Assembly (NCBI RefSeq): GCF_044904665.1
Contig: NZ_JADIKM010000001.1
Span: forward strand, 1,467,995 to 1,491,994
DNA: 24,000 bases
Direction of reading: 5' to 3'
From: Dyella ginsengisoli
Lineage (GTDB): Bacteria; Pseudomonadota; Gammaproteobacteria; Xanthomonadales; Rhodanobacteraceae
The notes under the pieces are model-generated. The model made no database searches. It saw nothing but the letters and a program-made list of their open reading frames with translations, and had not been told where the DNA came from. The translations under genes were made by a program, and so were the position numbers. This document shows, in pieces, positions 10,600-13,580 of the stretch. How positions within the stretch are numbered: the stretch's first letter is position 1; each line of letters opens with the position of its first letter.

Positions 10600-11253
10600 A
10601 TGGCCAACTACAAGTGCAAGAACGACAAATGCAACGAGGTAGTCACCGCAACAAAGAAGCCGGGCAAGTGCACGAAGTGCGGGAAGAACAAAGGGTGGGA
10701 CCTGGTAGTAACGGCCACCACCACCGGACGCGACACCTCCGACGTGCCCGAATGGGACAACGCGGCGACCACCGCGCTGACGGCGGCCAACCTGGTCACC
10801 GGTAGCGCGCTTTCCACGCTGGGTGGCCAGCACGGTCTACCGAACGCTGCCTGCCTGGGGGCGGTGTACGACGCCATTGAGGTGCCGGCCGGCGGCAGCG
10901 ATCGCAACGCGATCTACTTCAACGCCTTCAGCGCCAACTACGACAACGACACCAGCAAGCTGGCCAAGACCGATCTGGCCGCCAACGCGCCGTTCGCGAT
11001 CAACAGCACCGCCTCGCACTGCGCCGAACGCGCCTTGTGGAAGAGCATCTCCGGCAGCCTGACCGGCGTGACCCTGCTGGGCATCGGGCAGACGACACGC
11101 CCCTGTCTGCTGTGCTGCGCTCGCTACCGTGCGCTGGCGGCCAGCAAGAACATCACCATCCTCATCTACTTCGACAAGAAGTACGACAGCCTGCCTGGCA
11201 ATACCTGGCTGCTGTTTCCGGCGACCGCCGGGACGGCGATGTACACGAGCTGA
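10600..11253 (+). CDS. Zn-ribbon + deaminase-fold protein (candidate nucleic-acid/nucleotide deaminase toxin)
   Basis: 217-aa ORF with an AAAGGAA RBS. The N-terminal C6-x4-C11-x12-C24-x2-C27 forms a zinc ribbon. The C-terminal SHCAERALW (codons at 11017-11028), 24 residues, then RPCLLCC (11101-11118) gives the HxE ... PCxxC deaminase signature. Confidence 0.7.
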   Translation: MANYKCKNDKCNEVVTATKKPGKCTKCGKNKGWDLVVTATTTGRDTSDVPEWDNAATTALTAANLVTGSALSTLGGQHGLPNAACLGAVYDAIEVPAGGSDRNAIYFNAFSANYDNDTSKLAKTDLAANAPFAINSTASHCAERALWKSISGSLTGVTLLGIGQTTRPCLLCCARYRALAASKNITILIYFDKKYDSLPGNTWLLFPATAGTAMYTS

Positions 11254-11309
11254 CGAGGCGTCGCAGCGAGCCGCTCATCCAACGCCCCGAACACGCAAGG
11301 ACGCCCGTC

Positions 11310-12011
11310 ATGTGCACACCCGTTTTCACCAAATCCGCTCTCAGCCGCACCTGGGTCAACAAGGTCACCGCCACCGTGGTGACCAAGGCCACCGTGGTGT
11401 TGAACTCGACCAACCTGGGTGGCGGCAGCGGGCCCAGCAATCTGATCAATCCCCCCGGCTGGCTCGACGGCAGCTGTCCGGCCCATCACAACCGCGGGCA
11501 CCTGATTGGCAACGCGCTGGGCGGCAAGGGCGACGATGCCGACAATCTGGTGACGCTGACCTCGGGCACCAATCACCCCTTCATGTACGAGTTCGAGGAC
11601 GCGGTGAAGCGCTTCGTGCTGGCCCATCCCGGTGTCGACTTCCAGTACGAGGTCGAGTGCAACTACGACAAGGAGAACTACACCGCACTGACCGGCTACG
11701 ACATTCCCGGCGCCAGCGGCAATCCGTTCTGCCTGTTCCCGGCACCGGCCTTTCTCACGCTGTCGTTGAAGAAGAACCAGGTGCTGCAATCGCTGCAGAC
11801 CATCAGCGGCTACCTGCCCAAGCCGCCGCCGGATCTGGGGACGCTGGCGGCCGTCACGTCGCTGCGCATCCCCAATGGCGGTTACAAGCTCTATTCCGGT
11901 GCCACGCATACGCTCAGCAATTGCGCCTCGGTCGCCACCGATCCGTCCAACAACGCAGGTCTGAAGCTGGCGGCGAAGAACTACGCCAAGGCGTTGGGTC
12001 ATGTGAGTTGA
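11310..12011 (+). CDS. DNA/RNA non-specific endonuclease-like toxin (Endonuclease_NS_2 / EssD-YeeF-like beta-beta-alpha-Me nuclease)
   Basis: In-frame ATG at 11310. NPPGWLDGSCPAHHNRGHLIGNALGGKGDDADNLVTLTSGTNHPFMYEFEDAV matches the GW...RGHLI..LGG....N.V....N...M..FE pattern of that family. About 100 aa of unassigned C-terminal sequence follows. Confidence 0.72.
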   Translation: MCTPVFTKSALSRTWVNKVTATVVTKATVVLNSTNLGGGSGPSNLINPPGWLDGSCPAHHNRGHLIGNALGGKGDDADNLVTLTSGTNHPFMYEFEDAVKRFVLAHPGVDFQYEVECNYDKENYTALTGYDIPGASGNPFCLFPAPAFLTLSLKKNQVLQSLQTISGYLPKPPPDLGTLAAVTSLRIPNGGYKLYSGATHTLSNCASVATDPSNNAGLKLAAKNYAKALGHVS

Positions 12012-12289
12012 GCATTTCGGAGCGCTGGATAGGGATGCGCAGGCATGGCTCTGGCTGGGGCAGTGCTGCTTTTCAACAAATGGCGTCGATGCGGCCCGCT
12101 ACCGCGCCAGCCTGATTCTGGCGCTGCGGGTGTACAGCACCGGGGTGATGGCCGCATTCGCAACAGGCCAATGTTTTTTTCCCGCTGGCAAGTCAGGCGG
12201 TCGGTCAGCGTGGCATGCGGATGGATCGGGCCTGTCGTCGACTCGCCCGGAATGTTGTCAAGGTTGATGAAGGGCAAAGGAGGGATCGA

Positions 12290-12685
12290 ATGCCGACCAT
12301 TACCGCGGATTTCAATCACGGTCATAACCACGGCCCCATTTTCTCGCGTGGCGAAAATGCCGTTGATCGTCCCGTCAATGACAGGCGGGCGCCATCGATC
12401 AACGTGCGAGCCTACGCGCCGGCCTTGTATGCGCATATCAACGCCGTGAACCGACTCAGACGCTCTCCATGGGCATGCGCTGAAGCGCAGGCGCTGTCCA
12501 AGTTGCTCTGGTACATCAGGCGTGCCGGTTACGTCATCGACTTGAGCCGGATCACGTTTGGACGCCCCACGGGTTATGACGGCGCCGAGCTCTGGACACC
12601 CTGCGAAAACTGCCTTGAATGGCTCGAGCAGGCCGGTGGCTGGGGGCCGGACGTCACCTACCGGATCAGGCCGGAGTTGCAATAG
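12290..12685 (+). CDS. Minimal (131 aa) deaminase-fold protein, CAE / PCxxC type
   Basis: ATG at 12290 preceded by a strong AAGGAGGG RBS. PWACAEAQAL (Cys codon 12476), 38 residues, then TPCENCLEW (12599-12613) give three-Cys zinc ligands plus the catalytic Glu, as in CDA-type deaminases. The local DNA is noticeably less GC-rich. Confidence 0.6.
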   Translation: MPTITADFNHGHNHGPIFSRGENAVDRPVNDRRAPSINVRAYAPALYAHINAVNRLRRSPWACAEAQALSKLLWYIRRAGYVIDLSRITFGRPTGYDGAELWTPCENCLEWLEQAGGWGPDVTYRIRPELQ

Positions 12686-12830
12686 GCCGCTGCCGATTTT
12701 CTGCGGGAATCGAGCTACGTGTCGCCGGTGTTCAGCTCCTTGGCGCTCGCGTTACCGCTGCCGGGAAACCGTGTCGGGATCGAGCGCTGATCGGAGAGAT
12801 GAAGTCCAATGCTTTCGAGGGAGATACCCG

Positions 12831-13580
12831 ATGGCGAGGTGTCCTGAGTGCCGCGAGAACCTGACCGCCGACGGCATCGGCCATGCGCGGGACTGTTCCC
12901 GATGGCGGGGGCGGGCTCGTCTCACGCCGAGTGATGCCCAGGAACTGCGGGAGGAGCGTCGGCGGCAGGAGATCGCGCAACGCGAGCGCGAGGCGGAGCG
13001 TCGCCGCCAGATCGTCGCCCGGACCAGCGCGGCGCTGCTGGGGGCGGCGCCCACCACCAGCTCCAGCCGGTCCTCCCTCGATGACGTGGCCTACAACGTG
13101 CATAACGCCTATGACTGGCAGGGGCGCGGCGATCAATGCGTCACCGCGGTGGTGCGCAAGAGCAACGGACGTCATGTGGTGTTCGCGCAGCGTTTCATGA
13201 CCGCGATGGAGGAGTACGGCACCCGTCATTACGCCGATCACGACCTCACGTTCAAGCCGGGTGGTGGCTCGCATCTGCATGCGGAGATGTATGCCGTACT
13301 GCACTACCTGCTGCGCGGCAAGCACCCGGGGCGCGAGATCGAGCGCATCGGGGTCAGCAAGCCGATCTGCCCGCTGTGTCGGGCGGTGCTGACCTATCTC
13401 GGCATCCGGTTTTCGGAAAGCTGGGTGACCGCGGAGGCCAGTTCGCACTGGCTCGACCCCTGGAGCCTCTTGCCGTCGACTTGCAAGCCGCCGGTCAAGC
13501 ACTGGCGGAAGGACGAGGACCCGGACGATGGCGTGGGAGGTGGCGGTGGCAGCTCCTTCTCGTCGCCGATCACGGTGTGA
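12831..13580 (+). CDS. Zn-knuckle + Arg/Glu-rich helix + deaminase-fold protein (HAE / PCxxC)
   Basis: In-frame ATG at 12831 with an upstream GAGGGA. N-terminal C4PEC7...H18ARDC22 forms a zinc knuckle, followed by the charged helix REERRRQEIAQREREAERRRQI and a Ser-rich linker. GGGSHLHAEMYAV (13278-13286), 27 residues, then KPICPLCRAVL (13368-13379) give the deaminase signature. An acidic/Gly-rich tail DEDPDDGVGGGGGSS ends the protein. Confidence 0.68.
   Translation: MARCPECRENLTADGIGHARDCSRWRGRARLTPSDAQELREERRRQEIAQREREAERRRQIVARTSAALLGAAPTTSSSRSSLDDVAYNVHNAYDWQGRGDQCVTAVVRKSNGRHVVFAQRFMTAMEEYGTRHYADHDLTFKPGGGSHLHAEMYAVLHYLLRGKHPGREIERIGVSKPICPLCRAVLTYLGIRFSESWVTAEASSHWLDPWSLLPSTCKPPVKHWRKDEDPDDGVGGGGGSSFSSPITV

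Follow-up and report, generated by a model that had tools for sequence, protein, structure and literature searches.

This study concerns a group of genes for putative nucleic-acid-modifying proteins located within a type VI secretion system (T6SS) cluster of Dyella ginsengisoli (assembly GCF_044904665.1, contig NZ_JADIKM010000001.1). The stretch of DNA analysed, referred to as the window, comprises 24,000 nucleotides (positions 1,467,995 to 1,491,994 of the forward strand), and a Pfam scan of its proteins identifies the whole window as a complete T6SS cluster (table 1). In the interval between clpV and the gene of the PAAR spike-tip protein there are eight genes on the forward strand, A, D1, N, D2, D3, E, F and G. 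The sequence carries the locus tags ISP17_06860 to 06895, and all island genes except the nuclease gene N are named 'hypothetical' by NCBI. A first-pass annotation, made from the letters of the sequence and a list of its open reading frames (ORFs), had described here three mutually divergent deaminase-fold genes within 3 kb and no recognisable immunity partners; the ORF coordinates and order that it gave, as well as its gaps of 278 and 348 bp, are all exact.

Table 1. Features of the window, in order of position (aa, amino acids; SAM, S-adenosylmethionine).
Feature	Position	Strand	Size	Description or basis
TssB	137-652			Pfam
TssC	659-2152			Pfam
Hcp	2378-2878			Pfam
TagJ/ImpE	2927-3724			Pfam
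TssF	3863-6133			Pfam
clpV (tssH)	7218-9953	+	911 aa	ORF; left conserved border of the variable region
A	10081-10527	+	148 aa	orphan protein upstream of D1
D1	10600-11253	+	217 aa	N-terminal 4-Cys zinc ribbon and C-terminal deaminase-like domain
N	11310-12011	+	233 aa	stand-alone DNA/RNA non-specific endonuclease; 56 bp after D1
N-D2 spacer	12012-12289		278 bp	non-coding, cassette junction; codon scores, comparison with relatives
D2	12290-12685	+	131 aa	deaminase-like by motif only
D3	12831-13580	+	249 aa	CxxC...HxxxC knuckle, highly charged helix, then predicted OTT_1508-type deaminase domain
D3-E spacer	13581-13928		348 bp	non-coding; codon scores, comparison with relatives
E	13929-14942	+	337 aa	hydrophobic glycine-rich segment; family sits just upstream of PAAR
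F	15037-15544	+	168 aa if intact	+1 frameshift in G7 run 15243-15249
G	15785-16222	+	145 aa	conserved small protein
PAAR spike-tip protein	16654-16941	+	95 aa	Pfam PAAR_motif, E 1.9e-26; right border
TPR + SAM-methyltransferase protein	16953-18335	+		Pfam TPR, Methyltransf_11/25; directly after PAAR
VgrG	about 18301-20445			Pfam
DUF6931 protein	after vgrG			Pfam
FHA protein	in the window cluster			Pfam

Deaminase-type and nuclease genes between clpV and PAAR

D3 matches the Pfam family OTT_1508_deam (PF14441) with 32.0 bits (cut-off 27; E 1.2e-7), and its orthologues carry the same precomputed match. The signatures of the OTT_1508 clade are a GxxK motif before the CxxC and an extended loop after strand 4, which contains a polar residue (usually His) and an aromatic-xx-P motif (PMC3239186, Table 1). 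D3 has an HAE motif, the GxxK before the CxxC (GVSK-PICPLC) and the His followed by aromatic-xx-P (H..WLDP), and both GVSK-PICPLC and SHWLDPW are kept in the D3 copies of the window and of two related loci, L017 and L048. The UniRef name of D3 is CMP/dCMP-type deaminase domain protein, and its ratio of nonsynonymous to synonymous substitution rates (dN/dS) against relatives is 0.12-0.18. Judged by the Pfam match and these signatures, D3 is a bona fide member of the OTT_1508-clade deaminase family. A metagenomic homologue of D3 (53% identical; L084, 2233-2976), which lies behind a serine-protease-like gene (GDSG) in a different T6SS variable region, ends before the HAE motif and is an apparent pseudogene.

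Among 13 homologues of D1, which go down to 61% identity, the cysteines C6/C11/C24/C27 and the motif residues C141-A-E143 and P168-C169..C172 are all unchanged, and the N-terminal region of one homologue passes the rubredoxin-like model RUBY_RBDX with 27.1 bits. No Pfam, NCBIfam or PDB sequence match was found for the C-terminal domain, either with the copy in the window or with five homologues. The AlphaFold model of D1, computed from 13 sequences, has a mean predicted local distance difference test score (pLDDT) of 67 (70-86 in the core) and places in order a helix, two long strands, a helix starting from CAE, a strand, a helix starting from PCxxC and two further strands. This order of strands and helices is that of the deaminase topology, with both motifs at helix N-termini, and a deaminase fold is therefore likely for D1 according to the model. 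In the deaminase superfamily the fold has three layers, alpha/beta/alpha, with the order b1-b2-a2-b3-a3-b4-(a4)-b5, and [H/C]xE opens helix 2 while PCxxC or CxxC opens helix 3. The family is small: there are only 19 homologous clusters, each at least 61% identical, from T6SS slots of Rhodanobacteraceae, and dN/dS against relatives is 0.12-0.20.

D2 is the smallest of the three. Its motif, C63-A-E65 ... P104-C105..C108, is invariant in the three homologues found in the database, each 131 aa long and from T6SS slots of Rhodanobacteraceae, and in a 44%-identical copy in L071 (Dyella agri); dN/dS against relatives is 0.07. Sequence and profile searches with D2 gave no match in Pfam or the PDB. Under the codon model of the host D2 scores -0.08 per codon, and the guanine-cytosine (GC) content dips to 0.60 over 12001-12700, which covers D2 and the preceding gap, compared with about 0.65-0.70 in the surroundings. 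The atypical codon usage together with the local dip suggests recent acquisition, and these features would fit a transfer from a donor of lower GC content.

The nuclease-like ORF that the first-pass annotation placed directly after the first deaminase-like ORF is confirmed as such: N matches Endonuclea_NS_2 (PF13930) with 51.7 bits (cut-off 27; E 1.3e-13), and its NCBI name is 'DNA/RNA non-specific endonuclease'. The translation contains 'NRGHLIGN...DNLVTL...EFE', that is, an RGH motif with downstream Asn and Glu, which we take to be the catalytic residues from what is generally known of this family; dN/dS against relatives is 0.06. As for the three deaminase-fold genes of the same annotation, the assignment stands for D3 through Pfam and is likely for D1 through its model and weak Foldseek matches, and for D2 it comes down to the motif.

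Each of D1, N, D2 and D3 starts with ATG behind a Shine-Dalgarno-like sequence, and dN/dS of the island genes against relatives lies between 0.04 and 0.21, which can be compared with 0.20 for clpV; D1, D2, D3 and N are under purifying selection and are functional genes. The four proteins are soluble and basic (15-28 kDa, isoelectric point 8.2-8.9) and have no signal peptide or membrane segment. The mutual divergence of the deaminase-like genes has been borne out, since hidden Markov models (HMMs) of the D1, D2 and D3 families gave no cross-matches and hhalign detected no significant relation between any two of them.

Both gaps of the array were searched on both strands, and no ORF of at least 25 aa with a positive codon score was found; no Rfam family matches them, and scans for promoter and terminator consensus sequences and for repeats gave nothing above background. 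A codon log-odds gene caller was used, after a caller based on GC content at third codon positions had missed low-GC genes; D2 is still under-scored by it. Compared with the close relative L015, the genes share 90-95% DNA identity with zero indels, whereas the N-D2 gap is 83% identical with five indels of 1-2 nt, and the D3-E gap is 85% identical with indels of 1 and 2 nt; of the latter gap, L017 shares no more than one stretch of 72 nt. The N-D2 gap has no counterpart where D2 sits elsewhere, e.g. in L008. Both gaps are non-coding, and there is no leftover small coding ORF within 10600-13928, which agrees with the earlier claim that none is left over on either strand (A, F and G lie just outside the range of that claim).

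The variable slot of a group-3 T6SS

The genomic position of these genes is of a kind that has been described before. According to Bayer-Santos et al. 2019, the group 3 T6SS of Xanthomonadales consists of two structural blocks with an insertion of 2.2-15.6 kb that varies by species, it has TagJ and control by PpkA/FHA, and conserved genes of unknown function follow PAAR and vgrG (PMC6653060). The window contains ImpE, FHA, the DUF6931 gene after vgrG and the TPR-methyltransferase gene after PAAR. By this gene content, the window cluster is assigned to the Xanthomonadales group-3 (X. citri-type) T6SS, and the putative deaminase and nuclease genes are placed within its known variable insertion. 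Subtype i4b was considered as well and rejected, as the literature assigns group 3 (PMC6653060).

For comparison, the TPR-methyltransferase gene adjoining PAAR was used as an anchor, and a scan of one genome per species yielded 67 loci (L numbers) of the same T6SS, which span Dyella, Rhodanobacter, Frateuria, Lysobacter, Luteimonas and many Xanthomonas, among them X. euvesicatoria and X. phaseoli. On its left, the island is bounded by the C-terminal 250 aa of ClpV, which are 80-98% identical across related loci and whose orthologues are listed with precomputed AAA/ClpB domains. Slot contents were counted in the 55 loci that have both borders in range. The slot measures 1.5-8.9 kb there and holds about 75 gene families, its contents differing at nearly every locus; common are only PAAR (present in 51 of the 55 delimitable islands) and the E family, and the remainder is patchy. 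Other slot genes, recognised by eye or by Pfam, are HExxH metallopeptidase-like, class-3-lipase-like, Tle1-like, PI-PLC-like, HNH, EEP and serine-protease-like. The anchor itself is unusual as a conserved T6SS accessory: a TPR + SAM-methyltransferase gene follows PAAR in essentially all 67 loci, with 45-93% identity, and the 2019 review shows the gene after PAAR merely as conserved, function unknown (PMC6653060).

How the contents of the slot may change can be seen from Dyella sp. KULCS107 (L014), where three unrelated genes (5112-7417) occupy the place that A-D1-N-D2-D3 occupies in the window. The borders are the same, and the methyltransferase, E and G are 93%, 97% and 92% identical to those of the window, so that the comparison shows a recent block replacement between the conserved flanks clpV and E.

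Genes with deaminase features recur in the slot. A loose deaminase motif pattern matches 19 ORFs on the forward strand as against 2 on the reverse strand of the 55 homologous islands; the motif is commoner in the slot than expected by chance. In L025 (1141-2286) a 381-aa protein matches dCMP_cyt_deam_1 (33.8 bits, cut-off 25) and Bd3614-deam, and dCMP_cyt_deam_1 matches below the cut-off or at the margin are found in L026 (4647-5078) and L073 (6855-7286, E 0.014), respectively. L005, where Pfam matches were likewise obtained, carries beside D1 two adjacent deaminase-like genes (9026-12725), one OTT_1508-like and the other dCMP_cyt_deam-like; the D3 signatures given above are partly kept in x219. 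A 92%-identical copy of the L005 gene x152 was found by similarity in L067 (3747-4202), and x219 is not with it. Predicted deaminases are thus a recurrent cargo theme of the islands of this T6SS.

Independent cassettes without a linked immunity partner

The neighbours of the deaminase-type genes vary between loci. In the window, L002, L010 and L015, D1 stands between A and N. In L005, a 65%-identical D1 follows an EEP-like gene and is itself followed by 880 bp without a called gene, and in L021 a 67%-identical D1 comes after an HExxH gene, with no convincing ORF in the next 750 bp or so; N is missing beside both copies. Hidden genes in these stretches of roughly 800 bp were considered and rejected. 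D2, which precedes D3 in the window, is found without D3 in L008, L009 and L071, with unrelated 177- and 164-aa genes downstream there: in L008 it begins 29 nt after clpV and both genes follow, and in L071 the 44%-identical D2 precedes the same 164-aa gene (x164), which is also found without D2 in L018 and L019. D3 is found without D2 in L017, L048 (Xanthomonas, directly after clpV) and L083, and its five downstream neighbours are mutually unrelated (E, an E remnant, an HNH nuclease gene after a gap, a 252-aa gene and a 248-aa gene). N is followed by the non-coding gap in the window and by E in L002.

Hence each of D1, D2 and D3 is found in 3-5 distinct neighbourhoods and never with a common small partner, and wherever the flanks of a copy are visible, the copy is located within this slot or next to the clpV or PAAR gene that borders it. 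For none of D1, D2, D3 and N was there a neighbouring immunity gene inherited along with it, such as DddI is for DddA. D1, D2 and D3 have been shown to be independent single-gene cassettes without a linked immunity partner, and this recurrence in varied neighbourhoods without a common partner makes both linked immunity and mutual neutralisation unlikely.

Mutual neutralisation, one of the options named in the first-pass annotation, would mean that one member of each adjacent pair, e.g. D2 with D3 or D1 with N, serves as the antidote of the other. The genes are adjacent in the window, L005 likewise has two adjacent deaminase-like genes, and heterodimeric deaminases with one regulatory subunit exist (ADAT2/ADAT3). 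The pairs come apart, however, in both directions, D2 occurring without D3 (L008, L009, L071) and D3 without D2 (L017, L048, L083), and the same is seen for D1 without N (L005, L021) and x152 without x219 (L067). The catalytic motifs are moreover complete in all members. Being largely refuted by the distribution, this explanation is regarded as extremely improbable.

A more conventional explanation is that the four proteins are antibacterial toxins of the usual kind whose immunity goes unrecognised, in A, in the frameshifted F, in G or elsewhere in the genome. The T6SS deaminases and Endonuclea_NS_2 toxins known so far act against bacteria and come with an immunity protein (DddA-DddI, SsdA-SsdAI, EssD-EssI), A, F and G are immunity-sized (145-168 aa) and of no known family, A is located directly upstream of D1 in four loci, and antibacterial-looking pairs are present in related clusters. 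What weighs against it is the behaviour of each candidate.

A has no match in Pfam, NCBIfam, PADLOC or the PDB, and its family amounts to 13 clusters (P0031-P0043) among 1.84 billion representatives, all of them stand-alone proteins of 71-171 aa; the distant members are all on short contigs, where the gene context is uninformative. It accompanies D1 in the window, L002, L010 and L015 and is missing beside the D1 copies of L005 and L021, which have no small neighbour in its place, and a remnant of A is found without D1 in L067. E5, Y20, C26, T30, G41, H43, G80, W85 and D111 are invariant at 26-32% identity, and dN/dS is 0.10. The invariant Cys, His and Asp at such low identity suggest that A resembles a Cys/His enzyme more than a fast-evolving immunity binder.

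F is broken in this strain: its coding frame switches at about 15200-15250, deleting one G restores the 168-aa protein, and the NCBI annotation skips its locus tag. Intact 168-aa copies are found in L017 (95%) and L036 (82%), and the frameshift may reflect a genuine pseudogene, phase variation or an error in the assembly. PDB searches with F, by sequence or by profile, gave nothing meaningful. F and x164 (L008, L018, L071) have only a short 'YPxIxxC...GxH' motif in common with A. The grouping of A, F and x164 into one family was tried and rejected: their HMMs gave no cross-match, hhalign returned P of about 0.01 on the motif only, and with a wider profile x164 reached only E 0.04-0.15 and F E 9.5. 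A resemblance to CheD-type deamidases, considered because of the C...GxH hairpin, is not claimed either, as neither CheD nor any other Pfam family matches the three proteins.

G (dN/dS 0.04; no family match in Pfam, NCBIfam or PADLOC) is present in five loci (window, L010, L014, L015, L017), as against 22 for E, and E or F always stands between it and any deaminase gene. The gene found downstream of D2 elsewhere, x164, likewise occurs without D2. The option that immunity is encoded by the products of the ORFs starting at 10081 and 15785 (A and G) is therefore disfavoured, because there is no common partner, A is missing beside D1 copies of 65-67% identity and G is far less widespread than E. 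The same holds for immunity encoded elsewhere, since three or four mobile toxins would each need an unlinked immunity gene, and such an arrangement is hard to transfer and hard to reconcile with the horizontal acquisition of separately mobile toxins. Altogether, unrecognised immunity is considered unlikely.

The E family is present in 22 of the 55 islands, always immediately before PAAR, with distant forms of about 415 aa at 26-28% identity; the maximum hydropathy of E is 1.69 at residue 204, and dN/dS is 0.21. There is no Pfam match and no consistent partner gene among the loci compared. E may be a conserved effector or adaptor that depends on PAAR.

Probable targets and relation to known systems

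D1, D2, D3 and N are located inside a T6SS cluster, between clpV and PAAR and at a strain-variable position, as is characteristic of T6SS cargo. A role other than that of a secreted toxin was weighed, in which they would be accessory or regulatory proteins of the T6SS, enzymes of nucleotide metabolism or silent toxin cassettes. It is consistent with this that Pfam revealed in none of the island proteins a fusion to PAAR, Rhs or VgrG, a secretion marker of the MIX, FIX or RIX type or an adaptor of the DUF4123, DUF1795 or DUF2169 type, that D1 and D2 are without known relatives, and that PADLOC gave no match to any other known system. On the other side stand the intact catalytic motifs and the patchy, cassette-like presence in a slot that is otherwise full of hydrolase-type genes. 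Accessory proteins should be conserved over the 67 loci, and these proteins are not, which disfavours an accessory role. Silent cassettes have been rejected, given that all four genes have start codons and ribosome-binding sites of their own and show purifying selection; there is also no large polymorphic-toxin gene that could act as the recombination acceptor, the PAAR protein having just 95 aa. This group of explanations is held to be highly unlikely.

The explanation to which we give somewhat better than even odds (a probability of roughly 0.55) is that D1, D2, D3 and N are single-gene cargo effectors of the T6SS without cognate immunity, probably aimed at eukaryotic targets. The three zinc-dependent deaminase-type proteins and N, a nuclease of the beta-beta-alpha-Me type, would all modify nucleic acids. 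Small proteins can be loaded in the lumen of Hcp or ride on VgrG/PAAR, and the four proteins would probably be carried inside the Hcp tube or at the tip made up of VgrG/PAAR, fired into target cells and there deaminate bases or cut DNA or RNA. The intended targets would not be sister bacteria but eukaryotic cells, e.g. amoebal predators or fungi; alternatively, the enzymes may require a substrate or cofactor that is absent from the producer. From the genes and their distribution we infer that the proteins are secreted and enzymatically active, which kingdom they target and why immunity is missing; the last of these is, in our view, best explained by targets other than kin bacteria.

Eukaryotic targets are proposed because the homologous machine of X. 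citri is anti-amoebal and because there is a precedent in Iyer, Zhang, Rogozin & Aravind 2011, and of the four options named in the first-pass annotation, targets absent from the producer is the best supported, for the same two reasons. The X. citri member of group 3 provides protection against Dictyostelium and gives no advantage against bacteria (PMC6653060). The window shares with it the homologous machinery, the gene order, the variable region and the conserved gene after PAAR (Bayer-Santos et al. 2018; PMC6653060), and PknS-like kinase genes occur in several loci related to the window. Dyella systems are described as 'very similar' to the X. citri type; the slot of X. citri, about 15.6 kb, has the regulators EcfK/PknS, which the Dyella systems lack, and its effectors are unknown, with an acid phosphatase and an EEP protein as predicted candidates and no deaminases reported (PMC6653060). 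As for the precedent, Iyer et al. predicted immunity-less deaminase toxins of the OTT_1508, XOO_2897 and AID/APOBEC-like clades in eukaryote-associated bacteria, and mentioned the Xanthomonas OTT_1508-like protein XCV4233 and T6SS delivery (PMC3239186). D3 is assigned to one of these clades, OTT_1508, and the missing adjacent immunity is the same theme, whereas D1 and D2 match none of them in Pfam. That study (PMC3239186) is predictive and contains no arrays of several unrelated deaminases in one T6SS slot; Dyella lives freely in soil and is neither an endosymbiont nor a pathogen.

Several observations weigh against cargo without immunity that is aimed at eukaryotes, and the first concerns the same T6SS in other Rhodanobacteraceae, which is accompanied by antibacterial-looking effector-immunity pairs. 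The site between the methyltransferase gene and vgrG contains in L002 a 343-aa gene and an LprI-domain gene (14603-16438, reverse strand) and in L008 a gene for a 142-aa Cys/His amidase-like protein and one for a 160-aa protein with a signal peptide/lipobox (13433-14343); inside the slot of some relatives there are pairs of an HExxH gene and a lipoprotein gene. Should the machine fire at kin as well, nucleases and deaminases that lack immunity would damage the producer itself and be costly. The window cluster has no such pair, and the site between its methyltransferase gene and vgrG is empty. An antibacterial role has furthermore been proposed for the system of D. japonica (PMC6653060). The evidence for the enzymes themselves also has to be considered. 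The best Foldseek matches of the D1 model in the PDB, DddA, DddB/BaDTF3 and APOBEC3G/3B, are weak (probability 0.80-0.85, E 0.04-0.3, none at or below 0.001), and the AlphaFold model of D2, with four sequences as input, is unusable (pLDDT 37.6). Characterised T6SS deaminases (DddA, SsdA) and Endonuclea_NS_2 toxins are antibacterial. Finally, the proposal does not say what protects the DNA and RNA of the producer until the proteins are exported, and the coverage of the genome is that of the 24-kb window.

Another explanation would be antibacterial proteins for which immunity is not needed, either because a factor of the target cell is required, or because the machine does not fire at kin, or because sublethal mutagenesis is tolerated. 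The motifs are intact and yet there are no partner genes, the group-3 systems have post-translational control of firing of the PpkA/FHA type, and DddA intoxication is described in one source as capable of being sublethal and mutagenic (PMC7901873). This explanation is speculative, and the catalytic core of N is complete, with no inhibitory domain apparent in the protein. We know of no precedent among the characterised T6SS nucleases and deaminases, which counts against it, and it is judged quite unlikely.

A bolder version of the proposal that eukaryotes are the targets can be put forward tentatively, as possible but doubtful: a nuclease and three unrelated deaminases, of which two represent undescribed families, would be delivered into eukaryotic predators or fungi, and the producer would be spared through a substrate or cofactor specific to eukaryotes. 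If true, these would be the first trans-kingdom T6SS deaminase effectors, the X. citri-type anti-amoeba system would have its first assigned effectors, and very small deaminase scaffolds (131-217 aa) that are tolerated by bacteria could be drawn from them.

The relation to characterised toxins has two sides. On the one hand, DddA-DddI of Burkholderia cenocepacia and SsdA-SsdAI of Pseudomonas syringae share with D1-D3 the association with a T6SS and the [H/C]xE and PCxxC motifs, DddA and DddB are the best, if weak, structural matches of the D1 model, and the toxins EssD/EsaD-EssI and YeeF-YezG have the same nuclease domain (PF13930) as N. On the other hand, DddA and SsdA form the C-terminal domains of large trafficking proteins, with a cognate immunity gene following, whereas D1-D3 are small, stand-alone and partnerless; there is no sequence-level likeness to DddA, and D1, D2 and D3 have no DddA-like Pfam match. 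The EssD/EsaD and YeeF nucleases are C-terminal domains of type VII secretion system substrates with adjacent immunity genes, and unlike them N is a stand-alone protein of 233 aa in a T6SS cluster without an immunity gene. D1, D2, D3 and N are not members of the DddA-DddI or SsdA-SsdAI effector-immunity type, as both the fusion to a trafficking protein and the immunity gene are lacking.

The variable region of the group-3 T6SS and the theme of immunity-less deaminases have already been published (PMC6653060, PMC3239186). What is new is the presence of several unrelated deaminase-type genes together with a nuclease gene in one slot, the recurrence of such genes over the group-3 T6SS of Xanthomonadales, and two orphan families, D1 and D2. 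In the literature searched, up to 2026, we found no report of deaminase effectors for this type of T6SS, nor of anti-eukaryotic T6SS deaminases.

For the biology of these secretion systems the findings have several consequences. The effectors of the group-3 T6SS are unknown and its only studied member is anti-amoebal, so that the island of D. ginsengisoli and its relatives provide a candidate list that is rich in putative nucleic-acid-modifying enzymes. Three deaminase-type genes that have moved repeatedly without immunity make a comparative case for tolerance by the producer, and they are useful for asking whether missing immunity predicts anti-eukaryotic effectors. Relatives of D1 and D2 are confined to a few Rhodanobacteraceae; should the two proteins be active, they would constitute new small deaminase families, and toxins of the DddA type have become tools for base editing.

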